Below are positions 2 through 19,836 of a stretch of 64,000 bases of DNA, in pieces. Position 1 is the first letter of the stretch. Each line of letters begins with the position of its first letter. The translations under genes were made by a program, and so were the position numbers. Source of the stretch: Candidatus Micrarchaeota archaeon (GTDB taxonomy: Archaea > Micrarchaeota > Micrarchaeia > Micrarchaeales > CABMGC01); NCBI GenBank assembly GCA_021817505.1, contig JAKAUU010000016.1, forward strand, positions 2,844-66,843, written 5' to 3'. The notes beneath the pieces were generated by a model. The model had not been told where the DNA came from. It saw only the letters and a list, made by a program, of their open reading frames with translations, and did no database searches.

Positions 2-1414
2 CGCATAGTCGCCAATACTCTTGACCTGGGCAAGCAGATACTGCTCTTCTACAGCGCCAAGAGGAATACAGAAGCAGGAGCCGAGAGGCTCTCCCTGCTC
101 GTCTCTTCAAAGCTTAATGATGGAGAGAAGAAGAGGCTTGCAGAGGTCTCGAAGAGGATACTGGGGGCTCTTGGCAGACCGACTGCGCAGTGCGAGAAGC
201 TTGCAAAACTTGTTGAGAGGGGCGTTGCCTTCCATCACAGCGGCCTTGTAAACGAACAGAGGCATGAGGTCGAAGAGGCATTCAAATCGGGGCTCATAAA
301 GGCGATATGCTCGACTACCACCCTTGGGGTTGGAGTCAATCTGCCTGCGCATACGGTAGTCGTCAGGGACACAGTAAGATATGACGAGCAGTATGGGAGC
401 ACGCACATGAGCGTAAATGTTGTGACGCAGCTCTTCGGAAGGGCAGGTCGGCCGAAGTATGATAAGATGGGAAGGGCGCTGCTCATAGCGAAATCCAAGG
501 AGGACATGCGCGAGCTATACAACAGGTATATAGACGGCGAGCTCGAGCCTGTCGAGTCGAAGCTTGGCATGGAGAGCGTCCTCAGGACGCATCTGCTCTC
601 GTTTATAGCTACGCGGTTCTTGACTAGCAAGGAGTCCATATCGGACTTCATGTCAGGCACTTTCTACGGCTATCAGTACTCGGACATGGATGACCTTAAC
701 AGGATAGTCGGCAGGGTGCTGAACGAGCTTGAGGGATGGAACTTCATAGAGAGGCACGGCAGCGTCTACAAAGCCACTAGGATAGGCGAGAGGGTCAGCG
801 AATTGTACATAGATCCTATGTCGGGCAAGTGGATGATAGACTCGCTGCCTAATGCAAAGGACGTGTTGTCGATATTGTTCATGATATCGAATACGATAGA
901 GATGCGCCCGTACGTCAAGGTTATTGATGAGGCGGAGGAGCAGTTTGTCGTCTACCAGAAGATGATCGAGAATGAGGGCAGTTATATGATTTCTGAGGAG
1001 TTCGGCTACTATGATCCGCTGAAGCCTTTTTCGACGTCGATAATGCTGAATGACTGGATAAGCGAGAAGCACGAACAGGAGATAACTCTGAAGTACAAGA
1101 CGACTCCGGGAGCGATCTATACGAAGATAAACAATGCGGACTGGCTCCTCTACTCCGCTGCGGAGCTTGCGAAGCTGATAAAGAGCAGCTCCAGGCGGAT
1201 AATCGAGATGCGTGTACGCATGCGCTACGGGATAAAGGAGGAGCTGATGGATCTTGTGAGGCTTGAGGGGATAGGAAGGGCAAGGGCGCGCCTTCTCTTC
1301 TCGGAAGGGATTACTGACGTTAAAAGCCTGCGCAAAGATGGCTCGAGGGAGAGGGTGGAAAGGCTTCTTGGCAAGGAATTGGCAAGGCATATCTACGATC
1401 AATTGAACGGATGA
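2..1414 (+). CDS. hel308: Hel308/Ski2-like SF2 helicase, C-terminal part (5' end lies outside the window)
   Basis: Frame 2 is open from the window edge. Hand translation of 2-406 gives ...ILLFYSAKRNTEAGAERL...GVAFHHSGL...ICSTTTLGVGVNLPAHTVVVRD, continuous with tracked ORF 407-1414 (QLFGRAGRP = helicase motif VI). The C-terminus has an HhH-like GIGRARARLL segment typical of Hel308 domain 5. Confidence 0.85.
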   Translation, partial: RIVANTLDLGKQILLFYSAKRNTEAGAERLSLLVSSKLNDGEKKRLAEVSKRILGALGRPTAQCEKLAKLVERGVAFHHSGLVNEQRHEVEEAFKSGLIKAICSTTTLGVGVNLPAHTVVVRDTVRYDEQYGSTHMSVNVVTQLFGRAGRPKYDKMGRALLIAKSKEDMRELYNRYIDGELEPVESKLGMESVLRTHLLSFIATRFLTSKESISDFMSGTFYGYQYSDMDDLNRIVGRVLNELEGWNFIERHGSVYKATRIGERVSELYIDPMSGKWMIDSLPNAKDVLSILFMISNTIEMRPYVKVIDEAEEQFVVYQKMIENEGSYMISEEFGYYDPLKPFSTSIMLNDWISEKHEQEITLKYKTTPGAIYTKINNADWLLYSAAELAKLIKSSSRRIIEMRVRMRYGIKEELMDLVRLEGIGRARARLLFSEGITDVKSLRKDGSRERVERLLGKELARHIYDQLNG

Positions 1415-1504
1415 GCTCTTTTCCTCGTGTAATTCCGCTAATGGAATTTACAGAAAGCTTAATAAAAATGAGCAAATACTATAAGTTCAGTTTTAAGGCG
1501 ACTG

Positions 1505-1879
1505 GTGAAAAAAATGGGAGTTTTTGATAAGCTTGGTCAGACATTTGGCCAACAGGGAAAGGACATGGATCTCGGAGACTACATGAGCGCTGTAGAGATG
1601 GAAGATGTAGACGTAATGCACGAACCTGCAGACATGTACATCAAGCCTGTATCTATATCAAGCGAGGATGAAGTCAAGTCTGTTGAGGACGAACTTGCCA
1701 AGAAGAACATAATACTTCTTGACATAACTGAACTGAACAAGAGGCCAACTACAAGAAGCAATGTCGTATCTGAGCTTAAGAGATTCACTGCAAAGATAAA
1801 CGGGGACATAGGCCAGATAGACCAGACAAGGATACTGCTGACACCTGGAAAGGTAAAGATAATAAAGAGGAAGAAGTAG
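1505..1879 (+). CDS. sepF: SepF-like cell division protein (FtsZ anchor, DUF552 family)
   Basis: 124 aa with an acidic N-terminal half followed by a SepF-core-like pattern (KPVSISSEDEVKSVEDELAKKNIILLDITEL...GDIGQIDQTRILLTP). Two ftsZ genes lie 2.5 kb away. The tracked start 1505 is GTG; the in-frame ATG at 1514 (MGVFDKL) is an alternative. Confidence 0.65.
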   Translation: MKKMGVFDKLGQTFGQQGKDMDLGDYMSAVEMEDVDVMHEPADMYIKPVSISSEDEVKSVEDELAKKNIILLDITELNKRPTTRSNVVSELKRFTAKINGDIGQIDQTRILLTPGKVKIIKRKK

Positions 1880-1882
1880 TTA

Positions 1883-2503
1883 TCACTCCTTTAAGGCGGT
1901 TATTAGGGCGTGCACCTCGGTGCCGCTCGGCTGGGACGCAGAGACCATTCTTCGGAAGACTGCGCTCACAGCCTTTTTGTTTCTTATCCTTTTCTTTTCA
2001 AGAGAGCTATCGAAGATCTTGAATAGGTAGTTAAGCTCCTTCCTCTCAACCTTCCTGCTAGATATATCCTTGTATATGGGCAGCATCTTCTGCTTTGTGA
2101 ACTCGTAGAGTATGAGCGAAAGCGCATGCGAGATGTTCAGCACCGGATAGTTCTTGTCAGTAGCTATGTACATGACCATGTCGCACTCCTCTATCTCCTT
2201 GGCGCTCAGCCCCGTATCATCCCTGCCTATAAGTATGCCGATTACAGCTTCCTTCCCGAATCTCTTCAGCTTCTGGGCGGAATTCTGGAGCAGGAAGATC
2301 CGCTTGAAGGTGCGGTTGGCCTTCTCCCATATGCCGGTTGTGCCTATCACTATGGTACACTCCCTTGTAGCTTCGGCTATGCTCCCGTAGACCTTTGCAT
2401 TCTTCAATAATGAGCTGGCATGCTTTGAGAACATGATGGACTTGCTTCCCGTAAGCTTTGCCCTTGGCTTAACGAAATAGAGCTTCTTTATCCCGAAGTT
2501 CAT
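1883..2503 (-). CDS. SpoU/TrmH-family RNA 2'-O-methyltransferase (aTrmJ-like)
   Basis: SpoU-type pattern: VIGTTG..., ILIGRDDTGLSAKEIEECD, NISHALSLILYE. The conserved N-terminal motif-1 region (LRFKIIIVEPKYQINIGYIARVS) is encoded in frame upstream of the first ATG (2504-2572) with no ATG/GTG/TTG available; see findings. Confidence 0.8.
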   Translation of the reverse strand: MNFGIKKLYFVKPRAKLTGSKSIMFSKHASSLLKNAKVYGSIAEATRECTIVIGTTGIWEKANRTFKRIFLLQNSAQKLKRFGKEAVIGILIGRDDTGLSAKEIEECDMVMYIATDKNYPVLNISHALSLILYEFTKQKMLPIYKDISSRKVERKELNYLFKIFDSSLEKKRIRNKKAVSAVFRRMVSASQPSGTEVHALITALKE

Positions 2504-2573
2504 CGAGACTCTGGCTATGTACCCTATGTTTATCTGGTACTTCGGCTCTACTATTATTATCTTGAAGCGCAGA

Positions 2574-3338
2574 TTATCGCCACATTATTACAAGCAGGGC
2601 CGAGACCGCAAGTGAGTTTACAAGTATGTGCGTTATTATGCTTGGGTAGAGCGATCCCGATTTCTTGAAGACATAGCCTGCAAGCAGTCCGAAGAACATC
2701 GCGGCTATGACCTCTATCGCAAAGGTCGAATCGTAGCTGGCATGCAGAAGGCCGAATATTACTGCGCTTACGACTATGCCTACCCAGTTAGAATCGTAGC
2801 CCGATCTTAGGAACCTCGATATTGTAGTGTTTGAGATAAGGTTTATCCTGTCTATAAGAAAGCCCCTGAATACTATCTCCTCGTTTATCGGCTCTATCAC
2901 TGCAGTGAATATATAGAACCATAAGGGTGCGCCGGTGAAGAGTACACTCGCATTGGTGTTTATGGTTATGTTTGAGAAGCCTTCGAAAGCCGAGACTGCA
3001 ATCTCGAACAGCAGTATTGTTACAAAGAGAAGAAATCCTATCCATGCTGCATTTAGGGAGATGCTCTCCTTAGACAGGCCCAGGGAGCGCAGAGTTGTGC
3101 CTATGCTCTCCCTTCTGTAGAACTTTGAATAGAGAAATATGGCTATCGATAATGAGAGAAGGACCTCTGTCTCCAGCACGAAGTTGAAGGAATTCAGAGA
3201 GATTATACCAGCAGCATATGCGCCGTATGCGAGTATTCCGAGAAATCCTGCCGAGAATATGTAAAATAGGATTAGTACTATGAGCGAGATGCTCCATTGC
3301 GATAGATGCTGCATGTAGCTCTCAGTCAAAAGGCGCAC
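2574..3338 (-). CDS. CPBP-family intramembrane glutamic protease (CAAX protease/Abi family)
   Basis: Polytopic membrane protein carrying all three CPBP motifs: EEIVFR (EExxxR), FGLLH (FxxxH) and HILVN (HxxxN). Confidence 0.8.
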   Translation of the reverse strand: MRLLTESYMQHLSQWSISLIVLILFYIFSAGFLGILAYGAYAAGIISLNSFNFVLETEVLLSLSIAIFLYSKFYRRESIGTTLRSLGLSKESISLNAAWIGFLLFVTILLFEIAVSAFEGFSNITINTNASVLFTGAPLWFYIFTAVIEPINEEIVFRGFLIDRINLISNTTISRFLRSGYDSNWVGIVVSAVIFGLLHASYDSTFAIEVIAAMFFGLLAGYVFKKSGSLYPSIITHILVNSLAVSALLVIMWR

Positions 3339-8572: not shown

Positions 8573-9487
8573 TCAGGACTGCATGAATGCGCTCGGTATC
8601 GGGGCATACATCTTCTTGAACTGCCTTTTGCCGGAGAAATAGTCGTACATGACCATCTTGTAAAGATTTACTTCGCCCTGCATAAGGGTAAGGTAGATTA
8701 TGCCGACAATGGATGCACCGAGGATAACATAATATACTGCGCTGAATTCCAGGAATATGGTAAATCCAATAACTCCATACATGAAGATCACCGCACCGAT
8801 GACCATGGCGATTAGCAGTATCTTGAATACAGCGGTGTTGGTTAACGCCTTTGCCTTAATTGTGCGCTTTAGGCGGGTCTTTCCCAGAGCAAGGTTTAGC
8901 ATTGCTGAGATGATGCTGTTTTTATACATGAGCTGCGAGCTTAACACAGTTGATTTTATCGGACCTGTTTTTTTGTCTATGATTATTGGCGTTACAAAAA
9001 AACTGGATACTCCCAGGGTAATTCCGGCTGCGATTGCGGCCAGCTCGGAAAATATGAATTTTCCGCTGAATCCAATGCGGGATAATAAGTAGATGAACAC
9101 GCCTTCGAATATGGCCCACTCAAATATCAGCTTTGAGTATTGCCTTGCTTCAGATAGTCCTTTGAGTATGTGCGGTTTGCCGCCGTCAAGCAATATCTCC
9201 CTGAAATTCAATACCATGGCAAAGGAGAAGTAATACAGCGTGTATACCGCTGCGATCAGCATGGCTATGAACCCGAAGGTAACGTATAATGTAAAGAAAG
9301 ACCGTGGAACAACAAAAAAGAGCGCGAAATATGCGACAATCTCAAAGCCAATGACAAAAGAAGACAACAGCATATAATCGAGTATCCTGCGGTTGTCGTA
9401 TACGAACACATTGACGTTGAAGGATATTGTCTGGATTGCCTCTGCTGTAGGGTCTGAATCTGCACTTTGACCGGCAGCCTGTGGCAA
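8573..9487 (-). CDS. Polytopic membrane protein, function unknown
   Basis: 304 aa with about 7 hydrophobic segments. No recognisable catalytic motif. Confidence 0.5.
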   Translation of the reverse strand: MPQAAGQSADSDPTAEAIQTISFNVNVFVYDNRRILDYMLLSSFVIGFEIVAYFALFFVVPRSFFTLYVTFGFIAMLIAAVYTLYYFSFAMVLNFREILLDGGKPHILKGLSEARQYSKLIFEWAIFEGVFIYLLSRIGFSGKFIFSELAAIAAGITLGVSSFFVTPIIIDKKTGPIKSTVLSSQLMYKNSIISAMLNLALGKTRLKRTIKAKALTNTAVFKILLIAMVIGAVIFMYGVIGFTIFLEFSAVYYVILGASIVGIIYLTLMQGEVNLYKMVMYDYFSGKRQFKKMYAPIPSAFMQS

Positions 9488-9581: not shown

Positions 9582-10715
9582 TTATTCCTCGTTTATTATG
9601 CTGTAGATCTTCTCGGCGAAAAAGCCCCTGTTGCGCTCCTTCTTCTCCTGTACGAGTATGCCATCGTGAACGAGTCGCTCTACCGCATGCTTTGCAGTCG
9701 GGTAAGTCGCGTCTATCGCATCTCGCGCATCTGCTATGGTTATGTACGGGTTCTTGAAGAGCTCATCCAGTATTATTCTTGAGGATTCTGCAGACTTCGA
9801 GGTCCCTAATCTCTTCATGCATGCATTCCTGTAATCGGAAAGCTTTGCTGCAGTCCTGACCGCTTTCCTCGCCTGATAATGCATCGCTTTCAGGAAGAAC
9901 TTTACCCATGAGAGGTAGTCTCCGGTCTTGCTCACATGCAGTATCGTGTCATAGTACGCTCCTCTGTCTCTCTCGAAGTACTCGCTTATGCAGAGGCTTG
10001 GAAGATTGAGCAGCTTGCTCCTCTGCAGATATACAGATATAAGCAGTCGGCCGGTGCGTCCGTTTGCATGCTCAAACGGCCTTATCGCCTCGAATTGGTA
10101 GTGGAAGAGAGCGAGCTGCACTATCGGATGCATGGCTTCATTCTCCTGCATATAGTATAGGGCATTCTCGAGCAGAGGCATGACTCTCTCCGGAGGTGGT
10201 GGAACGTAGCGCGCTATCGCTGCGGGTGTTTCCGGAGAGCCGAGCCAATTCTGCCTCGTTCTTATAACAGAGTCCTTTTCGTTGTTGCTATCCGCCATCG
10301 CCTTGTGTGCTTGAAGTATAACGTGTGAAGTGATCTCGCCCCTGCTTATCGCAGGCATGCATGCCCTCAGGGCTTCTATGTGGCCGAATGCCTCTCTTGC
10401 AGCCTTGGGATCTGATATCGACCTCTTTCCCCTCTCATACCTGAAGAGATTGTCGAGGGTCTCACCGTTGCCATGCAGCCTTGCACTGTAAAGGGCCTCC
10501 TTTCTCGACTGAAGCTCCGCAAACTCTGGAAACTCGTTTGTGATGGCCTCAAGACGGCCCAGTTCGAAGCCTGTCTTTGCCAGAAGGGTTATTGCCTCGT
10601 CGTCAAATCTTATCTGCACTGGAAGGAGACGCGGTACGAATGAATAGTAATTGGTATGCTGGTTCTGCACGAATATTAGTTCGCCGGCCATGCCATTGAA
10701 CTCTGTCGGATTCAT
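9582..10715 (-). CDS. Fic/DOC-family protein (COG3177-like: N-terminal domain, Fic core, C-terminal wHTH) with a degenerate active-site motif
   Basis: The family pattern HYQFEAI-x-PF-xx-NGRTGRLL is present, but the motif reads RPFEHANGRTGR instead of HPFx(D/E)GNGRxxR. The N-terminal inhibitory-helix position reads SARLHG instead of (S/T)xxxE(G/N). Confidence 0.8.
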   Translation of the reverse strand: MNPTEFNGMAGELIFVQNQHTNYYSFVPRLLPVQIRFDDEAITLLAKTGFELGRLEAITNEFPEFAELQSRKEALYSARLHGNGETLDNLFRYERGKRSISDPKAAREAFGHIEALRACMPAISRGEITSHVILQAHKAMADSNNEKDSVIRTRQNWLGSPETPAAIARYVPPPPERVMPLLENALYYMQENEAMHPIVQLALFHYQFEAIRPFEHANGRTGRLLISVYLQRSKLLNLPSLCISEYFERDRGAYYDTILHVSKTGDYLSWVKFFLKAMHYQARKAVRTAAKLSDYRNACMKRLGTSKSAESSRIILDELFKNPYITIADARDAIDATYPTAKHAVERLVHDGILVQEKKERNRGFFAEKIYSIINEE

Positions 10716-10740
10716 TTCATCATCACGTAATGATATTATA

Positions 10741-11340
10741 TTAAAGAAAACTATTTAAATATTAATTAATATCGCATTTATCCAGATAATTTAGATTAGT
10801 ATGAATTTTTTAGGTGATTATGAACAATATACATATACTATAAACTATTTTACCCTCATACTTAGCATTTTAGTAATATTAATTAAATTAATCTAAATTA
10901 TAATTAATATAATCTTAATTACTGTTTATTTTTTCAATATATATTATTTTTTATTAAAATATAATTAATTATAGATATTATATCGGCGCATTAGTGTTTA
11001 GAATATCCTGATTATTTGTTTAATTAGCAATGTTATTCATAGTTAAAAAATTTATTTTATAATTAATATGGCAATTATATATGCTAATATCAATGTATTT
11101 AGTTTTTTATATTAAATATTTAATATATTAATTTAATATAGTATCGATATGTGTTATTAATGCAGTTTAAGATTATAGGACGCACTATTAGTCGGATAGT
11201 AAACAGGTATAAATAGATCATATTATAATTTATTATTAAAATATTAATATATATGTATATTATAATTAATCTGAAATTAATAATAATTTATGTTAAATAA
11301 TATACTTATTAAATTTAATATAATTGTGTGATGTACTTAC
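10741..11340. other. Extremely AT-rich non-coding island
   Basis: A hand count gives 95 G+C in 600 nt (about 16%), and several 60-nt lines hold only 5-10% G+C, whereas the flanking coding DNA is far more G+C-rich. No ORF of 60 aa or more. The decamer TATAATTAAT recurs at about 10901, 11061 and 11261 (ATAATTAATT at about 10961), and a 14-bp palindrome ATATTAATTAATAT lies near 10760. Two G+C-containing islets lie at 10981-11010 and 11161-11215. Confidence 0.7.
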
Positions 11341-11401
11341 TGATGTTGATAAGACGCACTGCATCTGCAGCACGTGTAATATACTTGATGGCTACTTATA
11401 C

Positions 11402-14400
11402 TTACTTGTTCTTGTTTCTAAAGTAAACAAAAAGTGCAACGAACACTATGATAACAGTTATTGCGATAACTGCCTGGAATGCATAGCCAGACTGCGGCTG
11501 AGAGGCAGCAGAGGCTGTTGATGCGGTGTCCACAGGAGCGATTGTGGTCGTCGTAGTAGAATTAAACTTGCTTGCTGGTGCAGACTCGAATACAGCTATG
11601 ACTGGATCTGATGGGGCGGCAAATGTTATGGTGCATGCTGCGATATCTAATATGAATGGGGTTATCTCCTGCCATGTACCGTTCCTCAGAATGAATGGGA
11701 TCATATCAGATGCTGGGATGCTGCAGTTATAGTGCATTGTTAGGTTTGCTGAGATATTCCTGTTGCTGAATGTGTAGTTTACCGCTTTTATCGCAGACAT
11801 ATTTGAAAGAGAAGGTATATCGGCAGGTGCAGCTGCGGCAGTCATGCTGAAGCAGGATGCGGTTACCGGTTTTATGGCGAAGGTCACGTTTAGCGATGGA
11901 TAATTTATTAAATATCCGGAGGTGTCATTGCATATCTGTTCCACTGCTCCTGACGAAGTTACGGAATGGGGCGTTGTTGGGATGGTGGTTATTGTAGTGG
12001 AGGTTGAGGTGATTGAACTGGTAGCAGTTATTGTTCCTGGAAGATGCCCGAAGAAGCCTGTTGATCCCCCAGCATATGGATTTGATACCTGAGTGCCAGT
12101 ATGTATTGTGACGGTGTCTCCTGCGGAACATGCGATTGCATTTGGAGTCGAACTGTCTATCACTTCATAGGAATAAGTTGCCTGTGCTGTAGGGGATGCA
12201 ACCAGTGAATTTGTATTCTGTCCTGCCATCTGGTCTGCAGTTGTGCATGTTGGAGCAGATGCTCCTGCAACTGAGTACCAGTTGTAAGTATATGGTGATG
12301 TTCCTCCAACTGCATTCGCGGTTAATGTTACACTCTGTCCTGGATTTATTATCGGGCCGGCAGGGACGATGGCCCCTGCTGTAATTGCGTTGTTTACAGT
12401 TATTACGTCATTCGATGAGAGTTGTGTCTCAGGGGTTGATGCACTGTCAGTTACACCTATGCAGTATGAGTTTGTTGAGGTTGGACTGACTGTTATGCTG
12501 TTTGATGTTGCCGTTACTGATGAATATGTCGCAAGTACATTTCCACTGTCCTGTGAGCAGGTATTTCCTGTTAATCCAGTATACCACTTTACCGTATAAT
12601 CAGGGGTTCCTCCTGACCATGAAGCAGTAAATGATACTGACTGGCCGCTGTCTATAGTCGGGTTTGAAGGGCTGATTGCCGGGCTGGATAGCACAGGATT
12701 GACTGTTATCTCAGAGGTTACGTCATGGATCTGGATATTGGTGTTGATGATTACTGCGTTGTTGCCGTTCAGGTTTGTCACATAGGCATAGGTTCCGGAA
12801 GGAGCAATGGCCATCCCTTCCGGTGCGTTGAATCCATATGTTATTATGCCTGCTATCGTATTTGTTGCAGCGTTGACGATTGCAACGTTCCTGTTGTCAT
12901 TGATATAAGCATATTCTCCCGTAGGGGAGAAGGCCATTCCAGGATAGGTAATTATATTGGTTATTGCACCTATCACGGTGTTTGTGGCAGTGTTTATTAC
13001 CACAATGTTATTGGTGTTGAAGTTTTCAACATATGCATATGCTCCTGAAGGAGAGAAGGCCACCGATTGAGGGGAGGAAAACCCTGAAGTGATTGCATTT
13101 GTCACAGTATTGGTGGCCGTGTTGATTATCACTACATTGTTTGAGCCTGAATTAGTTATATATGCATATGTTCCTGATGGAGAGAAGGCCACGCCTTGTG
13201 GTCCTTTGATGCTTGCCGATATCGAATTAACTACTGAATTCGTGGCAGTGTCGATGATCGCAACATTGCCACCGTACTGGTTTGTAACATAGGCATAGGT
13301 TCCTGATGGAGAGAAGGCTATGTAACTTTGGCCGTTGAATCCTGAATTTATTACGCCGGTTACTGTATTAGTAGACGTACTGACAATCACAATATTGGTC
13401 GGGATTGTTCCGCTGCAGGCCTCGTTGCAGTTGGCTATATAAGCATAGGTTCCTGATGGAGAGAAGGCAACACCTGAAGGATAACTGAATGGAGAGGTTA
13501 TGGCACTTACGATTGAATATGCACTAATGGCATTGTCAGTCACGAACGCACAGTAGTAGGTGTTCGCCGCAGGGGTAACCGGGGAGAATGTTACTGAAGT
13601 GGCAGAAAGTCCTATGTCCTGTTGGATAAGTGTGGACTGCTGGGTGCATGCAGAGGTTGCTGAAGAGTATAGTGATGCGCTGTAGGTAGGGGTTCCTCCT
13701 GACCATGAAGCAGTAAATGATACTGACTGGCCGCTGTCTATAGTCGGGTTTGAAGGGCTGATTGCCGGGCTGGATAGCACAGGATTGACTGTTATCTCTG
13801 ATGTGACACTCTTTGTTGTCGGCACGCCGGTGTTGATTATAACTAGGACATCTGAGTATATGTTTGTCATGTATGCATAGGCGCCGGTAGGAGATATTGC
13901 AACGCCGCCGCGGTTGTCGAATGGAGAGTGTATTGTGCCGACTATCGAATTTGTGGCAGTGTTGATTATTGAGATGTTGCCCCAGAAGCTTGTTGCATAT
14001 GCATACCCTCCTGAAGGGGCAAAGTAAACGCCGTCGGGGTTGGTAAGTCCTGATCCTGTTACCACACCAACCACAGTGTTTGTGGCAGTGTCGATGATTA
14101 CCGCGTTGTAGGCATTGAAGTTCGTAACATAGGCATAGGTTCCGGAGGTGGAGAAGGCCACGCCAGTAGATGCACTGAATCCGGCAGTTATCGAACCGGT
14201 TACGGAGTTGGTAGCAGTATTGATTATCACTATATTGCCATTGCCTGTTGTACCGCATGACGGACCGCAATTCGCCACGTATGCATAGGTTCCTGATGGA
14301 GAGAAGGATATCCCATATGGGGATGAAAATCCGGAAGATATCGTTCCTGTCACCGTATTCGAAGCAGTGCTGATTATAGATATTGTGTTGCTGCCCATAT

Positions 14401-15292
14401 TTGTTACATAAGCATAGGTTCCTGATGGAGAGAAGGCTATTCCGGCAGGACCATCAAATCCAGAATTTATTGAATTTACAACGGAATTGGTGGCCGTGTT
14501 GATTATCAGCACGTTGTCTGCACCAGATCCTCCGCAGCTTGTCTGGCCGTTTATCTCGTTATTTCCGCTGTTGCAGTTTGCAACATAGGCATAGGAGCCG
14601 TCTGGTGAGAATGCAACCCCGTACAACAGGTTGCCGAGGGAAAAGCTTCTAGATATCGAATATGCATTTGTCGAATTGTCAGTCACGAACGCACAGTAGT
14701 AGGTGTTCGCCGCAGGGGTAACCGGGGAGAATGTAGCAGAACTTGAGGCGAGTCCAGTAACCTGTTCTACCATGGTGGATTGCTGGTTGCAGGTGCTTGT
14801 TGGGGATGAGTACAGCGATACGCTGTAGGTAGGGCTTCCTCCTGTCCATAAAGCAGTGAAGGTCACTGACTGGCCGCTGTCTATTGATGAACTGGATGGG
14901 AAGAGCTTCGGTGTTCCGAGGTCCGGGTTTACGGTTATCACGTCATTCGATGAGAGCTGCGTTGTAGGAGTCGCATCCGTTACACCTATGCAGTATGAGT
15001 TTGTGGTTGTGGGATTGACAACTATGGAATTCGAAGCTGAAGTTATCCCATTGTATACAGCTATCTGGTTCGCTGAATCTTCTGCACAGGTGTTCCCTGA
15101 CGGGCCCGTGTACCACACTGCATTGTAAGGGCTAGTACCTCCGGACCATGTTGAGTATAGTATGGTTGATTGGCCCGTATCTATGGGCGGATTAGTCGGA
15201 GAGATAGAAGGCGTGCCCAGTGTTGCGGCTACGATGCTTGAAGTTGCTAAAAGAATTATCAAGGTTAAGATAACGGGCAATACGCTACGCAT
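11402..15292 (-). CDS. Giant cell-surface protein: signal peptide, five Ig-like modules, two YVTN-type beta-propellers, S/T-rich linker, C-terminal TM anchor
   Basis: 1296 aa. N-terminal signal peptide MRSVLPVILTLIILLATSSIVAA. Many GVAFSPSGTYAYVTN / INTATNSV blade repeats in two blocks. Recurring modules of the form ISPSNPTIDSGQSVSFTASWSGGTP...NTYYCAFVTDN. C-terminal hydrophobic helix AVIAITVIIVFVALFVYF followed by RNKNK. Confidence 0.85.
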   Translation of the reverse strand: MRSVLPVILTLIILLATSSIVAATLGTPSISPTNPPIDTGQSTILYSTWSGGTSPYNAVWYTGPSGNTCAEDSANQIAVYNGITSASNSIVVNPTTTNSYCIGVTDATPTTQLSSNDVITVNPDLGTPKLFPSSSSIDSGQSVTFTALWTGGSPTYSVSLYSSPTSTCNQQSTMVEQVTGLASSSATFSPVTPAANTYYCAFVTDNSTNAYSISRSFSLGNLLYGVAFSPDGSYAYVANCNSGNNEINGQTSCGGSGADNVLIINTATNSVVNSINSGFDGPAGIAFSPSGTYAYVTNMGSNTISIISTASNTVTGTISSGFSSPYGISFSPSGTYAYVANCGPSCGTTGNGNIVIINTATNSVTGSITAGFSASTGVAFSTSGTYAYVTNFNAYNAVIIDTATNTVVGVVTGSGLTNPDGVYFAPSGGYAYATSFWGNISIINTATNSIVGTIHSPFDNRGGVAISPTGAYAYMTNIYSDVLVIINTGVPTTKSVTSEITVNPVLSSPAISPSNPTIDSGQSVSFTASWSGGTPTYSASLYSSATSACTQQSTLIQQDIGLSATSVTFSPVTPAANTYYCAFVTDNAISAYSIVSAITSPFSYPSGVAFSPSGTYAYIANCNEACSGTIPTNIVIVSTSTNTVTGVINSGFNGQSYIAFSPSGTYAYVTNQYGGNVAIIDTATNSVVNSISASIKGPQGVAFSPSGTYAYITNSGSNNVVIINTATNTVTNAITSGFSSPQSVAFSPSGAYAYVENFNTNNIVVINTATNTVIGAITNIITYPGMAFSPTGEYAYINDNRNVAIVNAATNTIAGIITYGFNAPEGMAIAPSGTYAYVTNLNGNNAVIINTNIQIHDVTSEITVNPVLSSPAISPSNPTIDSGQSVSFTASWSGGTPDYTVKWYTGLTGNTCSQDSGNVLATYSSVTATSNSITVSPTSTNSYCIGVTDSASTPETQLSSNDVITVNNAITAGAIVPAGPIINPGQSVTLTANAVGGTSPYTYNWYSVAGASAPTCTTADQMAGQNTNSLVASPTAQATYSYEVIDSSTPNAIACSAGDTVTIHTGTQVSNPYAGGSTGFFGHLPGTITATSSITSTSTTITTIPTTPHSVTSSGAVEQICNDTSGYLINYPSLNVTFAIKPVTASCFSMTAAAAPADIPSLSNMSAIKAVNYTFSNRNISANLTMHYNCSIPASDMIPFILRNGTWQEITPFILDIAACTITFAAPSDPVIAVFESAPASKFNSTTTTTIAPVDTASTASAASQPQSGYAFQAVIAITVIIVFVALFVYFRNKNK
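12602..12712 (-). repeat. 111-bp intragenic direct repeat, identical to 13688-13798
   Basis: Base-by-base comparison shows both copies read aggggttcctcctgaccatgaagcagtaaatgatactgactggccgctgtctatagtcgggtttgaagggctgattgccgggctggatagcacaggattgactgttatctc. They encode the duplicated VNPVLSSPAISPSNPTIDSGQSVSFTASWSGGTP segment. Confidence 0.9.
13532..13591 (-). repeat. 60-bp intragenic direct repeat, identical to 14675-14734
   Basis: Both copies read attgtcagtcacgaacgcacagtagtaggtgttcgccgcaggggtaaccggggagaatgt, encoding FSPVTPAANTYYCAFVTDN. Confidence 0.9.
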
Positions 15293-15383
15293 CTGACAAC
15301 CAACCTACATAACAAAATTTTGATGTAAAAGGTTATATAATATGCGTTTGGCAGAGACAGGTCTGGGAGGACCTTCCATATGC

Positions 15384-17846
15384 TCAGTCAGTGCCCGTGT
15401 TTGCGCTTATGGTAAGATTCAGTTCTGTCGTCTGGTTTGCAGATACACTCACGTTCTTTGGCAGATCGCGCAGGCAGCTAAGGTAATAGCAGTTCATTAG
15501 AGTAATTGAGTATAGACCTGCTGCCACGTTTTGCGAGTACGTCCCGTTCGCAGAGACAGGTATCATGTAATCGTTTGTGCCGTCTGTCTGATTAAGTGCA
15601 AGCTTAAACTGGGAATATGTCGCAGCCTGGTCTATGCTGCCTATGCAGGACTTGGTTATGCTTCCGACAGTGCAGATACCCGTTACCTCGATCCTGCCCT
15701 GTATTGTCCCCATGCCGGTAAGATTTGTCTCTGGCACGGTAATCGTGGCGTTGGAGACATTCAGCTGCATTGAATTCGCCTGTGTTGAATTAGACGGCAT
15801 TGATATTGATACGTTTGCCGTGTTATCATACTGAGATACATTATATGACACGCGTATTGCAAGAGGCCCATAGTACTGATAGTCGGGCACTTTTATCCTA
15901 AGCACTGCTGCCATGCTCTCCCTGCCTGCCGTGCATACTAAGCAGTGTATCTCACCGGTGCATACGGGGCACTTTCCAGGGATATATTCAGACACATTGG
16001 TTATGCTTAACAGGGTGAACCCCTTTGTCAGTATGCTTATGTTACTCAGTAAATACCTTGTTCCTAGATATCCATATCCGCTCATCAGTGGAAGCGCATA
16101 GTTTTCTGTCCCGTTTGTTTCGGCAGTAAACCCTTGCAGCGTCTCGTTATATGTGCTGTTTCCTGCGGAGACCTGCTCATTGACATAACTGACTCCCACT
16201 AGTTTTGACGTATAGTTGCTTATGTTTCCCTTGTCCATAGCAGTGTAATTCGCATACGCTATCCCGGAGTGATTCTCTCCTACGCCGGTAACCCTTATGG
16301 AATAAGACTGGTTTGGTATCAATAGTATCTTTGTTATTCCTCCAAATGCAGGTATTGCGGATGCTTGTGGATGCATTTCGGGAAGTGAGCCTATTGAAAG
16401 AGTTCCATTGAAATGGAGAGTTGTTCCGCTGCCGCTCTTGATAGTCGTGCCTATGGATCTTGTGCAGCCTATGAACTCGCCTATTCCTTCTGATTCAGGA
16501 CAGTTAACAATCCCAGAGGCCAGTACAGGAAGCTCAAGGGTTCCGTTCTGCATTACTATGAAGTTAAGGTAGTTGCTGAACCTCCTTACGAAATCTGCGG
16601 TTGCCTGTGCTTCAAGACTGGACTGGTTAAATGATACAGAATCCTTATGTATAGAGGCAATGGCATTCTCGCTTATGCAGAACCTTCCAAAGCATCCTGG
16701 GCTCTCGGCAGTTGCATTTACGGATTGTGGATATGCCCGGTAACCTTGGTATCCTAACATTATCTCCTGCATGTATCCGTCAAGCTGCAGGCTCGTAAGA
16801 TCCACTGTCGAATTTCCCGTATTCCTTACGCCTAAAGAAATGCTTGTTGAATTGCCATTTGAGAGAAGAGTTGCATTCGTTATCTCTATGCTGCTGTTTG
16901 ACCTGAATATCTCCCTTATCTTTGGATTAAGCTTTCCCCTTTGGCCAACATGGGATGTGTTCTTTACCTCTGATGCGCCTACGAAGACTGCCTTTACGTT
17001 AGGCACCATCACGAAAATGCTTGCGTTGCTCTGCGAGTATATGCTTACTATTGTCGGGTTCATGTTTAGCAGAAGCCCGCTTATGGACGAGTTTGTGCTG
17101 GAATTTATTGACGTTTCTATGTATCCCTGCGGAACCGTGACATTATGGATTATGCCATATATGGTTATGTTTGCCGATGAGATGTTTAGACGCAATTCAT
17201 GTATTTTGCTGTAGTTCTTTATGTTAAGAACGGCTATGGTTTGCGTCTCGTTCGTTAGATTCAGCAGATTTGCCGTTCCTGTTGCGCTGAAGTACTCGAA
17301 TGCGGATGAATTGGCATACATTATGCCTATCGAGGAGTACCTTATGGATAGGGAGTTCGTACCTGGAGGTACCAGAGGAGGATCCGTAAGCTGTATTACA
17401 AAGTCGCCTTGCACAGAATTAGCAGAAGCGGACGGTTGTGAAGAGAGATAAGGTGAGGTTATTGGATATGCAGTAGTGCTGCCTTGGGGCGGATTCTGCA
17501 TGTTCGATATGAGAAGAAGCGCCACAACAGCTATTGCCGCTATTGTGATTATGCCAGCTGCAAAGGCCCTTACTTTGGCTATGTTATAGCCATTGTCCTC
17601 GAGCTTCTTTTCGAAAGATTTATTGTATTCGTAGTACTTCCACTTCCTGCTGTATGGATTGGCAACCTCCTTTATCGCACCTATCCTGAGGAGCTCCTTG
17701 AGGTGCTGGTTTGTTGTTGATTGGCCCAGATCCAGCCTTTCAGATATCTGGGTCATGGTCATTGGCTTCTCTTTGAGCAGGTCTATTATCTTCTTCTTGC
17801 TTTCGAAAAGTTTGCTCATGCAATAACACAATCCTAATCTAGACAC
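15384..17846 (-). CDS. Membrane-tethered winged-helix (ArsR-like) protein with a roughly 700-aa sequon-rich extracytoplasmic domain
   Basis: N-terminal wHTH pattern (KKKIIDLLKEKPMTMTQISERLDLGQSTTNQHLKELLRIGAIKE), then a single TM helix (AFAAGIITIAAIAVVALLLI), then a long domain with dozens of N-x-S/T sequons. The likely true start is M10 at 17819 (MSKLFES). Confidence 0.7.
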   Translation of the reverse strand: MSRLGLCYCMSKLFESKKKIIDLLKEKPMTMTQISERLDLGQSTTNQHLKELLRIGAIKEVANPYSRKWKYYEYNKSFEKKLEDNGYNIAKVRAFAAGIITIAAIAVVALLLISNMQNPPQGSTTAYPITSPYLSSQPSASANSVQGDFVIQLTDPPLVPPGTNSLSIRYSSIGIMYANSSAFEYFSATGTANLLNLTNETQTIAVLNIKNYSKIHELRLNISSANITIYGIIHNVTVPQGYIETSINSSTNSSISGLLLNMNPTIVSIYSQSNASIFVMVPNVKAVFVGASEVKNTSHVGQRGKLNPKIREIFRSNSSIEITNATLLSNGNSTSISLGVRNTGNSTVDLTSLQLDGYMQEIMLGYQGYRAYPQSVNATAESPGCFGRFCISENAIASIHKDSVSFNQSSLEAQATADFVRRFSNYLNFIVMQNGTLELPVLASGIVNCPESEGIGEFIGCTRSIGTTIKSGSGTTLHFNGTLSIGSLPEMHPQASAIPAFGGITKILLIPNQSYSIRVTGVGENHSGIAYANYTAMDKGNISNYTSKLVGVSYVNEQVSAGNSTYNETLQGFTAETNGTENYALPLMSGYGYLGTRYLLSNISILTKGFTLLSITNVSEYIPGKCPVCTGEIHCLVCTAGRESMAAVLRIKVPDYQYYGPLAIRVSYNVSQYDNTANVSISMPSNSTQANSMQLNVSNATITVPETNLTGMGTIQGRIEVTGICTVGSITKSCIGSIDQAATYSQFKLALNQTDGTNDYMIPVSANGTYSQNVAAGLYSITLMNCYYLSCLRDLPKNVSVSANQTTELNLTISANTGTD

Positions 17847-17933
17847 TAAGGATTAATAAGTATGTTTGCTTGCATCGGTTTTGTTTCGGTTTTCCTTCTG
17901 TAAATACCAGTATTAGAAAGTGATTTTTTCTGT

Positions 17934-18683
17934 CTAGTCGGAGTGCTTCTCTACAACCTCCCTGTATGAATCAGGAGTGCCTATATCATACCAGAAGTCA
18001 TCGTAGACCACAGCGTGGACCGTATTCTTGTTCTTCACCAGCCATTGCATGAAGTATCCTGGAGAATCCGGGTTGTTCTTGTTTGCAATATATTCGTCGA
18101 ATTTTGTGAGGTGCTCTTTTGGAATCGCATATATGCAGGTGCTTATCAGCGTTGATTTGGGGTTCTGAGGCTTCTCCTCGAATTCCGTTATTATACTGCC
18201 TTCAAGGCTGACCACCCCGAAGCGCTTCGCCTCGTTCAGATCCTTTATGTTGTGGAGCGCAGTTGCAATATTTCCCGTGTCATTTGATTTTGAGATAAGC
18301 TTCGAGAGGTCGAAGTTGTGGAAATTGTCTCCCGCTATGATCATCAGGTCGTTTTTGAGTCCTAGCTTCTTTATGGTGTATTCTATGCCTTTTATCGCAC
18401 CAAACTTCTCACCTTCGTGAGTAGTTGGCTCCACTACAAGCTCTATATGCACGTTCTTCACTGCCTTCCTGTGCTCTATCCAGTACCTGAACTGCTTCTC
18501 GAACTTCTTGTTCGTTGAGACGATTATCCTGTCGAAACTGTTAGTCATAAGGCCGTCTAGGATATGGTCTATCATCAGCTTTCCGCCTATAGGAAGAAGC
18601 GGTTTCGGTATGTACGTGGTTATAGGCTCCAGCCTTTTGGCATAACCTCCGCAGAGTATCAAAGCATCCATAGTAAACACCAA
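17934..18683 (-). CDS. Sugar-phosphate nucleotidyltransferase (NTP_transferase family)
   Basis: N-terminal signature LILCGGYAKRLEPITTYIPKPLLPIGGK (GxGxRL...K); 249 aa, single domain. Confidence 0.8.
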   Translation of the reverse strand: MVFTMDALILCGGYAKRLEPITTYIPKPLLPIGGKLMIDHILDGLMTNSFDRIIVSTNKKFEKQFRYWIEHRKAVKNVHIELVVEPTTHEGEKFGAIKGIEYTIKKLGLKNDLMIIAGDNFHNFDLSKLISKSNDTGNIATALHNIKDLNEAKRFGVVSLEGSIITEFEEKPQNPKSTLISTCIYAIPKEHLTKFDEYIANKNNPDSPGYFMQWLVKNKNTVHAVVYDDFWYDIGTPDSYREVVEKHSD

Positions 18684-18870
18684 TAGTAAACATCAAAATT
18701 GTTACTGGCCTTAACAATCGTTAAACCCAAGAGGGCTTAAGCAATTCTAAGATTCTAAGGCTTCATATTTAAATCTTGCCTTGCCTTTTTAAAGCCTTTT
18801 GAATGTTCCTTCGGTTTCTAAGATAAATACTTAAATGAGACTGGCTTAATCTGAGAGTAAGAAAAATTTA

Positions 18871-19836
18871 GTGACCGTAGTGGACAGAATAAAGAAACTG
18901 GAAAAGATAGGCAATGAGCTTAAAGAGGCGATGAGGACCTCGCTTGAACGAGAGCCTCCAACGATAATATTCCATCCTTCAAGGAAGCCTGATTCTGATG
19001 AATTTAAGGCGCTGTTCTTAATATCTACAGGGAATTCTTTGGAGTACGACATAAGAGCAGCCAAGGAAGGATATCCTGTTAAGCACGAGACTGCCACCAG
19101 CAAAATGAACATATGGGACGTTCTGCTTGGGAACGGGATCGAATCCGTTGAGAGCATACTTGGCCGTAAGAGGACCGATACATTGATGAGAATAGCCGGC
19201 AAAAGGGATAAATCCGGGAGACCTTTCAGCATCAACACCTTCAAGGACAACATTTATGTGAAGGACTTGACTCTTGAAGAACTGCAGAGGCTAGGCAAGG
19301 CAGGAGGGGAAGAGATACTTGGGCTTGGGCAGTTCCTTGATCTTTATGGCAATGCTCTTGATAGAGGCGTAAGGCCTGGAAGGCTCTCCGTAGATGTAAA
19401 GGATGGGGATGAAAATACCCATGGCAATTCAAAGATGGCGAAAAAAGTTACGCAGAGCATAATTGATGAGATGAACAAAAGAGGTCTTGAGGATAACTTA
19501 TTCATGTTCATGCAGTACAGCATACCTGCATTCAAGGCTTCTAGGAGGATAGTCGGGAACTTGGCTCACTCAGTGTGCATCTTTCCAAGTTCGATAATAA
19601 GCTTCTATGGAGAGGATATCTTTAAGGCATATGCGGGAAAAGCCATCGCAGAAACAGGAGCAGAGTGGATAGGGTGCAAGACTGGAGAGCTTAAGGTTTT
19701 GGACAGCGTTATTTCCGGTTCTGAAGAGAGAAGCATTATGGTATATGCGCCTCCTAAGGAGAGTGCGGACATACCCGTGCTGATGAAGATGCTTAGGAGG
19801 TATCCTGGAATAAAAGCCTTACAGTTAGACGTTTGA
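18871..19836 (+). CDS. Hypothetical protein, possibly a divergent glycerophosphodiester phosphodiesterase (GDPD)-like TIM barrel
   Basis: Loose positional pattern match to GDPD: IIFHPSR (for HRG), SLEYDIR (for iElDv), YPVKHE (for vv.HD), DLTLEELQRL, LSVDVK (for l.iEiK). Several catalytic positions are substituted. GTG start. Confidence 0.35.
   Translation: MTVVDRIKKLEKIGNELKEAMRTSLEREPPTIIFHPSRKPDSDEFKALFLISTGNSLEYDIRAAKEGYPVKHETATSKMNIWDVLLGNGIESVESILGRKRTDTLMRIAGKRDKSGRPFSINTFKDNIYVKDLTLEELQRLGKAGGEEILGLGQFLDLYGNALDRGVRPGRLSVDVKDGDENTHGNSKMAKKVTQSIIDEMNKRGLEDNLFMFMQYSIPAFKASRRIVGNLAHSVCIFPSSIISFYGEDIFKAYAGKAIAETGAEWIGCKTGELKVLDSVISGSEERSIMVYAPPKESADIPVLMKMLRRYPGIKALQLDV

Follow-up and report, generated by a model that had tools for sequence, protein, structure and literature searches.

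The subject of this analysis is a gene on the reverse strand of contig JAKAUU010000016.1 from a Candidatus Micrarchaeota archaeon (assembly GCA_021817505.1), located at 15384–17819 of the 64-kb stretch of DNA that was analysed, hereafter the window. Our analysis indicates that its product, the regulator, is probably an autoregulated single-pass transmembrane (TM) transcription regulator, whose winged helix-turn-helix (HTH) domain would act on tandem repeats of its own promoter. The family to which it belongs probably controls its own promoter and not the neighbouring gene for a giant surface protein. The architecture of the protein, its family, a conserved cis-element and the association of this element with HTH-bearing genes were all computed.

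Architecture of the regulator

The gene and the segments of its product are as follows. Two numberings occur, that of an 820-amino acid (aa) form starting at GTG and that of an 811-aa form starting at ATG.

15384–17846, reverse strand: open reading frame (ORF) as called mechanically, 820 aa from GTG 17846
15384–17819, reverse strand: preferred coding sequence, 811 aa plus stop, from ATG 17819
17622–17819, reverse strand: cytoplasmic ArsR-type winged HTH, residues 1–66 (811-aa form), from Pfam, AlphaFold2 (AF2) and Foldseek
17568–17621, reverse strand: short cytoplasmic linker, residues 67–84, with a 9-residue helix and membrane-flanking K/R
17502–17567, reverse strand: predicted single TM helix, residues ~85–106 (811-aa form), from hydropathy and AF2
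17412–17501, reverse strand: Ser/Thr/Pro-rich uncharged stalk by the membrane, residues 107–136, predicted to be disordered
16950–17411, reverse strand: first ectodomain module, a DUF4382-like beta-sandwich, residues 137–290
15387–16949, reverse strand: rest of the ectodomain, residues 291–811, with further beta-sandwich modules
15933–15971, reverse strand: extracellular cysteine cluster CPVC-x5-C-x2-C, residues 626–638 (820-aa form)

The true start is almost certainly ATG 17819, giving 811 aa, and not the GTG. This start is preferred because all homologues and an identical database entry begin at MSKLFESKK, and because the TATA-like box at 17852–17859 sits only a few bases upstream of the GTG and nearly abuts it.

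A preliminary description of this DNA had placed an ArsR-type winged helix at the N-terminus, and the helix that it quoted, MTQISERLDLGQSTTNQHLKELLRIGAIKE, is present in the regulator. Pfam matches residues 17–56 above the cut-off with both HTH_5 (33.9 bits, cut-off 22) and HTH_24 (25.4 bits, cut-off 21.9). The AF2 model based on a 150-sequence alignment has an H-H-H-beta-beta fold at residues 4–65 with a predicted local distance difference test score (pLDDT) of ~96, and a Foldseek comparison of the N-terminus with the PDB returned MarR-family DNA binders (FabT with DNA, ZitR and AdcR) at a probability of 1.00. The recognition helix reads STTNQHLKEL and the wing RKWKYY. Structure prediction, which the preliminary description had proposed, models both this winged helix and a beta-sandwich ectodomain; a first AF2 run with 11 sequences had a mean pLDDT of 51 and was replaced by the 150-sequence model, with a mean of 76.5.

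The single hydrophobic helix described after the winged helix was recovered by hydropathy scanning as exactly one segment, at residues ~94–114 of the 820-aa form (Kyte-Doolittle peak 2.88), and the AF2 model has a helix across it (residues 80–105 of the 811-aa form). K and R stand immediately N-terminal of this segment, and the next 25 residues contain no charged residue. The predicted topology is N-in/C-out (type II), as follows from the charge pattern, the single TM segment, the 3-fold excess of glycosylation sequons found on the C-terminal side only and the extracytoplasmic location of DUF4382. The comparison with ToxR made in the preliminary description holds for the topology but not for the type of winged helix, which is of the ArsR and not the OmpR/ToxR type.

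The ectodomain of ~700 aa is all-beta. Its enrichment in N-x-S/T sequons is far beyond chance: residues 116–820 contain 40 and residues 1–115 only one, whereas 2000 composition-preserving shuffles of the ectodomain gave 13.2 ± 3.2 with a maximum of 23, which bears out the description of a long sequon-studded domain. The stalk has a pLDDT below 50 at residues 105–134. The DUF4382-like module that follows opens with the near-invariant QLTDPPxVPxGT, in which D146, P147 and P151 are invariant across 150 sequences, and is modelled with a pLDDT of 90–97 (residues 137–355 are above 90, later modules at 75–90). The Pfam score of DUF4382 at residues 146–247 is right at the threshold (25.0–25.1 bits against a cut-off of 25), and the same domain is matched in 31 of 46 HTH-bearing relatives at E≤1e-3, with a best E of 1.6e-9. 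Residues 291–811 hold most of the 40 sequons as well as paired cysteines, and the C-terminal ~250 residues are confined to the long (~800-aa) family members. Foldseek searches of the PDB with the whole multidomain model gave loose matches of the ectodomain to multi-immunoglobulin (Ig)/macroglobulin-like proteins, namely integrin legs, alpha-2-macroglobulin, transglutaminase barrels and PrgB.

The 12 cysteines of the ectodomain lie in tight clusters (385/390, 449/461, 626–638, 725/734 and 786/791). In the cluster at 626–638, C626, P627, V628, C629 and C638 are invariant in a seven-sequence alignment that includes the 34%-identical HTH-less protein P0011; this cluster could be a disulfide knot or a metal site.

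A tandem repeat upstream of HTH-bearing genes

Two elements lie in the promoter region of the regulator gene:

17871–17892, reverse strand: two tandem 11-bp direct repeats, AAACCGAAACA AAACCGATGCA, a candidate operator or upstream activating site
17852–17859, reverse strand: TATA-like box TTATTAAT, 16 nt downstream of the proximal repeat core and 33–40 nt upstream of the ATG

The tandem repeat is unique in the window. When the spacer between the upstream nucleotidyltransferase gene and the ATG was aligned across six lineages, an invariant AAACCGnAACAnAACCG was found upstream of TTTATTAAT, with variable flanks. The repeat unit is defined as 11–12 bp, AAA(C/G)CGAAAnn, in direct tandem. A search of all fetched loci (numbered below with L) for AACCG-N6-AACCG gave one match per positive locus, each on the same strand as the family gene and 60–80 nt ahead of it. 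The positive loci are the window, five sister lineages, L027 and L028 with a 31%-identical member of ~820 aa, L031 and the Micrarchaeota locus L017. The stricter tandem pattern had no other occurrence in any locus or in the window. Promoters of HTH-bearing genes contain two or three tandem AAACCGAAAnn units, with a single unit in L016, L018 and L029, and the C-to-G variant AAAGCGAAA is found in Ca. Micrarchaeum sp. A_DKE, L013 and L009. The distance from the proximal CCG or GCG to the AT-rich box is ~14–16 nt in most loci.

This association was quantified over 18 HTH-bearing loci (488 kb, both strands). Sixteen of the 22 occurrences of AAACCGAA fall in the 61-nt target window, compared with 0.014 expected, and at least one unit or close variant is present in the target window of 15 of the 18 independent loci. 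Upstream of HTH-less family genes the element is absent in six of seven cases. The HTH-less paralogue in L009 has a duplicated promoter that retains the repeat (AAAGGCGAAATAAAAGCGAA), and the paralogue in L018 has no repeat. In the window, AAACCGAA occurs a second time at 18810–18817, ahead of the nucleotidyltransferase gene, but orthologous promoters do not keep this copy and it was discarded as a site.

The base that varies within the repeat covaries with a residue of the recognition helix. An STxxQH helix is accompanied by AAACCG in 16 of 16 loci and an STVSKH helix by AAAGCG in three of three, so that Q goes with CCG and K with GCG. The three STVSKH/AAAGCG proteins are mutually 32–37% identical. 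The loci with the repeat have nothing in common but this gene. Most simply, the winged helix would bind the promoter of the gene that encodes it. A one-component regulator tethered to the membrane, as suggested in the preliminary description, is supported at the sequence level by a conserved winged HTH and by an HTH-specific cis-element at a fixed distance from the TATA box.

Among the matches listed in a metagenome-wide scan for AAACCGAAANNAAACCGAAA, most are attributable to chance and one is a new true instance, L070. This locus (VFSW01000001.1, reverse strand, ~1262–3020) encodes a 567-aa HTH-bearing member with the repeat AAACCGAAATAAAACCGAAA 15 nt upstream of TATATAAAA. L070 belongs to the same assembly deposit (VFSW01) as L004; if the two come from one organism, paralogous regulators would share the operator type.

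Family, conservation and distribution

A word-indexed search with the single protein returned 11 relatives only and gave a false impression of rarity, and a second one with the family alignment returned 33 proteins with few taxon names. When the ectodomain alone was used for an exhaustive profile search, 1144 cluster representatives came up at E≤1e-3, 307 of them at E≤1e-30. Among the best 150 of the 1144, 46 have an N-terminal extension of ~85 aa and 104 have a TM segment at the extreme N-terminus. HTH_5 matches 45 of the 46 extended members. About one third of the family thus has the winged helix fused to the ectodomain protein, and the other members are simple surface proteins anchored by their N-terminus.

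The winged helix is the best-conserved segment of the HTH-bearing proteins, with the consensus MSKTxxTKxKILxLL...LAPSTVSQHLxEL...RKWKYY. Mean pairwise identities, given for the 46 representatives and for close orthologues, are as follows:

Winged helix: 49.5% among the representatives, 87.5% among close orthologues
DUF4382-like module: 45% among the representatives, 75.6% among close orthologues
Linker: 16.7% among the representatives, 81.6% among close orthologues
TM helix: 24.6% among the representatives, 60.5% among close orthologues

In a rough neighbour-joining tree built on the ectodomain core, the HTH-bearing members cluster (17 changes, compared with 38 when shuffled) without forming a single clade. 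This pattern implies repeated loss or relocation of the HTH module.

The family is abundant in metagenomes, and its taxonomic range as given here is a lower bound. Among the matches listed, distant HTH-bearing members in named records are mostly from Micrarchaeota (11 of 14 loci), among them Ca. Micrarchaeum sp. A_DKE with its complete genome (NZ_CP060530), and one HTH-less member is labelled Marsarchaeota. The archaeal setting assumed in the preliminary description agrees with these labels and with an archaeal-type glutamyl-tRNA synthetase in the window (equivalog TIGR00463, 447 bits, cut-off 401.75). The A_DKE homologue, Micr_00489, is a low-abundance transcript with 0.29 transcripts per million (PMC8975820 Data S5). 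This level fits a regulator rather than a bulk surface or surface-layer (S-layer) protein. Identity of the regulator with the Micrarchaeum S-layer protein SLP_Mh was considered and rejected; SLP_Mh is a 101-kDa protein with an N-terminal signal peptide/TM segment and is the most abundant protein.

Public pipelines annotate the regulator as "DNA-binding transcriptional ArsR family regulator" and the A_DKE homologue as "winged helix-turn-helix domain-containing protein" (arCOG01683). Neither annotation mentions the membrane anchor or the ectodomain. PADLOC gave only generic winged HTH (Csa3/CARF) matches for the regulator.

Neighbouring genes

The regulator gene stands between two genes on the same strand:

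11402–15292, reverse strand: 1296-aa YVTN beta-propeller/Ig surface protein (TIGR02276, 149 bits)
17934–18683, reverse strand: sugar-phosphate nucleotidyltransferase gene (Pfam NTP_transferase, 130 bits)

The 1296-aa protein has 11 YVTN stretches, an Ig domain, an N-terminal hydrophobic segment and a C-terminal TM segment. Its gene starts 91 nt past the stop codon of the regulator gene, and the spacer contains a TATA-like ATATTATATAA at 15333–15343; the spacing, the shared strand and the separate A/T box of the surface gene are therefore all present as first described. The gene pair itself is not conserved. A tblastn search with the 1296-aa protein against eight related loci gave no match, the giant surface gene was found in none of the other family neighbourhoods examined, and the stretch 10969–15855 of the window is missing from L001 in a DNA alignment. 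By these comparisons, the surface gene is a lineage-specific insertion and not a conserved partner.

Five sister lineages with 50–61% identity keep the upstream neighbourhood, in which the nucleotidyltransferase gene is the constant immediate neighbour on the same strand and a 2-oxoacid dehydrogenase operon lies further upstream. Downstream they have either a Fic gene after a gap of 635–745 nt (L001, L025 and L026) or a convergent gene (L004 and L023). The region between the regulator gene and a DNA ligase gene is a variable island, which holds a SoFic-like Fic gene, a ParE toxin pair (L025), a zf-UBP gene (L001) and, in this window only, the YVTN protein. Adjacency within such a variable genomic island is no evidence of regulation.

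The distant members have neighbours with no relation to each other. A_DKE and L013 have a MacB-type ABC transporter, L017 has an ABC-2 transporter and TrkA-like genes, and RNA polymerase or metabolic genes are found elsewhere. When the neighbours at 18 loci were clustered, the sole recurrent ones were ABC ATPases (5 loci) and Fic (4 loci), at positions that are not fixed, and no conserved partner gene was found across the neighbourhoods of at least 18 loci. Among surface-protein neighbours, only an HTH-less paralogue recurs; it comes immediately after the HTH-bearing gene, on its strand, in L009 (1118–4141) and L018 (8001–10550).

Proposed mechanism

What follows on DNA binding by the winged helix, on activation or repression, on the signal and on further target genes is inferred from the computed features. 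In the proposed mechanism, the ArsR-type winged helix would stay cytoplasmic, ~20 residues from the membrane, and the Ser/Thr/Pro stalk and a chain of N-glycosylated beta-sandwich domains, the DUF4382-like one first, would project outside. The winged helix most likely recognises the AAACCGAAAnn direct repeats, which lie one helical turn apart and 14–16 nt upstream of the TATA box. Repeats 11 bp apart would offer successive sites on a single helix face to side-by-side tethered protomers, so that two or three membrane-tethered protomers may dock there together and regulate the promoter of their own gene. For a site just upstream of the TFB-recognition element (BRE) and TATA box, activation is likelier than repression, because archaeal activators sit in this position, for example at the ArnR boxes. 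While transcription, translation and insertion of the product are coupled, the regulator gene may stay close to the membrane, and this would favour regulation in cis. The preliminary description had held that no function could be assigned to this architecture. This was too pessimistic, as autoregulation through a defined candidate operator is now a concrete proposal.

The ectodomain is presumably a surface module whose state sets the clustering of the cytoplasmic domains. Candidate states are self-association, association with HTH-less paralogues, glycosylation and contact. A clustering or assembly state is favoured because the ectodomain has no recognisable ligand pocket and is common to HTH-less paralogues, and a link with glycosylation is possible because of the nucleotidyltransferase and GT-C neighbours.

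Several observations weigh against autoregulation through the repeats. ArsR-family proteins usually bind inverted repeats as soluble dimers. The direct repeat and the replacement of the usual dimerisation helices by a TM segment are unlike ArsR. One unit or none is present in L015, L029 and, partially, L016/L018. The covariation rests on three loci, perhaps reflecting one ancient event, and another transcription factor could bind the repeats. The topology is based on hydropathy, charge and sequon distribution. HTH presence switches at least 17 times on the rough tree of the ectodomain core, and the HTH-less paralogues indicate that the ectodomain functions without a DNA-binding domain. Pfam and PDB-sequence profile searches found no enzymatic, small-molecule-sensor or ligand-binding domain in the ectodomain.

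In a rival reading, the protein would be mainly a structural or adhesive surface glycoprotein. Its winged HTH might then tether the nucleoid, hold DNA during exchange or bind a protein, and the repeats would serve a different regulator. About two thirds of the ectodomain family lack the winged HTH, the ectodomain resembles the strings of Ig-like/macroglobulin-like sandwiches of adhesins and integrin legs, and both its heavy sequon enrichment and the lack of a sensor domain in the searches above agree with such a role. We nevertheless consider it unlikely, given that the recognition helix and wing are the best-conserved part of the protein, that the repeats go with HTH-bearing genes and covary with the recognition-helix residue, and that the A_DKE homologue gives few transcripts, in contrast to abundant surface proteins. 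Release by proteolysis, which was also raised in the preliminary description, is likewise improbable. The protein would then be a membrane-tethered precursor, in which a surface signal leads to cleavage of the ectodomain and to intramembrane proteolysis, and the ~90-residue winged HTH would regulate in soluble form, either at these repeats or at other sites. The linker between winged HTH and TM segment is short, so access to DNA would be easier once the domain is freed, and the disordered stalk at 107–136 is a plausible cleavage site. A Lon_C-like gene (615 aa, L031 7550–9397) lies 44 nt downstream of a distant HTH-bearing member, and a gene for a BofA-like small membrane protein (L009 741–1022) lies just upstream of another; these are single occurrences, relevant only if the regulator is released by proteolysis. 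However, no protease gene is a conserved neighbour, the TM helix is poorly conserved and has no helix-breaking residues, a freed 90-residue monomeric winged HTH would have no evident dimerisation surface, and same-face direct repeats suit tethered protomers at least equally well.

Direct control of the adjacent 1296-aa surface-protein gene in response to an external cue, as first proposed, now appears very improbable. The arrangement itself, with a shared strand and a 91-nt spacer containing a TATA-like box, is compatible with it. Two Micrarchaeota loci (L009 and L018) have a surface glycoprotein, the HTH-less paralogue, directly downstream, and the repeat motif before the L009 paralogue suggests that regulation of a neighbouring surface gene may occur in the family. 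In the window, however, the spacer at 15293–15383 before the surface gene contains no repeat unit. The giant gene is absent from the eight related loci and from every other family neighbourhood examined, and it occupies a variable island that elsewhere holds the SoFic-like Fic, ParE toxin or zf-UBP gene. The linkage on which the coupling to an adhesin-like neighbour was based is lacking in relatives, and our analysis corrects the tempting inference that the regulator controls this gene.

A more far-reaching possibility, to which we attach little probability, extends autoregulation to a contact or self-recognition sensor common to acidophilic hosts and their Micrarchaeota episymbionts. Arrays of HTH-bearing and HTH-less ectodomains, on the same or on a partner cell, would align the winged HTH domains for cooperative binding to the repeats and switch on a surface or glycosylation programme. 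If this were true, the sensor would be a direct one-protein link from host–symbiont contact to transcription in archaea, and would add a protein–DNA recognition code (Q/K against C/G) that is readable from sequence. Micrarchaeota live attached to Thermoplasmatales hosts (PMC8975820), and partner sensing between them is a question that bears on the regulator family.

Comparison with known systems

By its predicted features the regulator belongs to a known class, the transmembrane transcription regulators; its family and candidate operator are undescribed in the literature searched. It has both features by which this class can be computed, a predicted DNA-binding domain and at least one TM segment in one polypeptide. 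The operator-like repeats ahead of its own gene lend indirect support to its putative action on transcription from within the membrane. According to the parts of the census examined (Demey et al. 2023, PMC10269533), such regulators occur in 367 of 404 archaeal species at ~4 per genome, single-pass proteins are the commonest type (56%) and the HTH_5 type accounts for 165 of 50,302. The same parts of the census mention neither DUF4382 nor Micrarchaeota, and they give no operator, ectodomain family or HTH-less paralogues of the kind found here.

ToxR and CadC of Proteobacteria likewise have an N-terminal cytoplasmic winged helix, one TM segment and a C-terminal external domain. The sites of ToxR are direct repeats spaced by roughly one turn of the helix, and the use of direct repeats is perhaps common to ToxR and the regulator family. 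The winged helix of ToxR/CadC is of the OmpR/PhoB type, whereas the regulator has no Trans_reg_C match at E≤1 and matches only ArsR/MarR/TrmB/IclR-type HTH models. The external domains of ToxR/CadC are small and unglycosylated, in contrast to the sequon-rich ~700 aa of the regulator; no ToxS-like partner gene, or any other neighbour, is conserved for the regulator family in at least 18 loci; and ToxR/CadC are bacterial, whereas the regulator family is archaeal. Because the winged-helix type differs and a ToxS-like partner is missing, the regulator is not a ToxR/CadC member.

ArnR and ArnR1 of Sulfolobus acidocaldarius are membrane-bound one-component activators with an N-terminal HTH that control surface structures (PMC6396743). 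Their boxes, the inverted repeats TCGAC-N5-GTCGA, lie at −43 to −84 upstream of BRE/TATA (PMC6396743), which is the zone that the repeats of the regulator occupy. ArnR has a HAMP domain, a cytoplasmic sensor domain and two C-terminal TM segments with no ectodomain (PMC6396743). The regulator, in contrast, has no HAMP match, a single TM segment straight after the winged HTH and 700 C-terminal residues predicted to be external, and on these grounds it is not a member of the ArnR family. No sequence relationship between ArnR/ArnR1 and the regulator was detected. In the literature searched, ArnR and ArnR1 are the only experimentally studied archaeal membrane-bound transcription factors, and they sense the cytoplasmic side. 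The regulator family would add an archaeal type whose external domain is large and glycosylated, and it supplies hypotheses on which DNA site is bound, on how binding at the membrane is arranged (same-face direct repeats, spaced constantly from TATA) and on a residue–base recognition pair.

The regulator and ArsR/SmtB share the winged-helix superfamily, with HTH_5 above the cut-off. The metal-ligand cysteines and histidines of ArsR/SmtB lie in helix 3 or helix 5. The winged HTH of the regulator (811-aa form) contains no Cys, and the first Cys is at residue 385 (820-aa form). Its score with the NCBIfam model HTH_metalloreg (NF033788) is 23.5 bits, compared with a cut-off of 55, and it is membrane-anchored whereas ArsR/SmtB proteins are soluble dimers. 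As it is below this cut-off and has no metal ligands, it is not an ArsR/SmtB metalloregulator.

The DUF4382 (PF14321) proteins have a module to which the first ectodomain module of the regulator, with its score at the cut-off, is probably related. Haloferax volcanii HVO_1030 is a Sec/lipobox DUF4382 protein that is N-glycosylated by AglB and extracytoplasmic (PMC8241124); its glycosylation matches the outside location and sequon richness predicted here. This Haloferax glycoproteome paper was the only mention of DUF4382 in the literature searched. DUF4382 proteins have no cytoplasmic DNA-binding domain, and the regulator, given its score right at the threshold, would represent a divergent branch with extra C-terminal sandwiches.

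Other features of the locus

The space between the regulator and Fic genes, 10716–15383 in the window, corresponds to 12389–13132 in L001 and 4222–4856 in L025, where the sister gap is non-coding. In the window it consists of the 3.9-kb YVTN gene and a 686-nt low-GC (~39%) gap with no convincing ORF, and only the ~250 nt adjoining Fic align with L001. The Fic gene itself, at 9582–10715 on the reverse strand beyond the surface gene, gave a full-length PADLOC match to the SoFic anti-phage system (270.8 bits). Two Micrarchaeota loci likewise have a Fic gene no more than ~2.5 kb from the family gene (L015 5288–6196 and L016 9649–10548), and this association may be chance or a weak link. A second, smaller YVTN beta-propeller-repeat protein of 442 aa is encoded 16 kb away, at 33605–34933 on the forward strand. 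The 90% cluster of the 1296-aa protein includes length variants of 1238 and 1246 aa, which suggests a variable surface-protein repertoire.

In A_DKE (L012 6114–13380), Micr_00489 has a divergent GT-C glycosyltransferase gene (PF13231) as its neighbour. Downstream, in an operon-like arrangement, are genes for an ABC ATPase that overlaps the 3′ end of Micr_00489, a 560-aa double-anchored glycoprotein and a MacB/FtsX permease. The MacB set recurs in L013, where it is oriented divergently.

The nucleotidyltransferase ORF of the window was called from TTG (MVFTMDAL...), and alignment with orthologues suggests an ATG four codons on (MDALILCGG). It has its own conserved TATA box, TTTAAATAT, ~75–90 nt upstream of its start codon. 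Within the 64-kb window a tRNA scan found no genes, and no Rfam family reached the gathering threshold. The locus is flanked by two conserved ORFs without a Pfam match, one of 321 aa at 18871–19836 on the forward strand and one of 304 aa at 8573–9487 on the reverse strand; the product of the latter has six hydrophobic segments.

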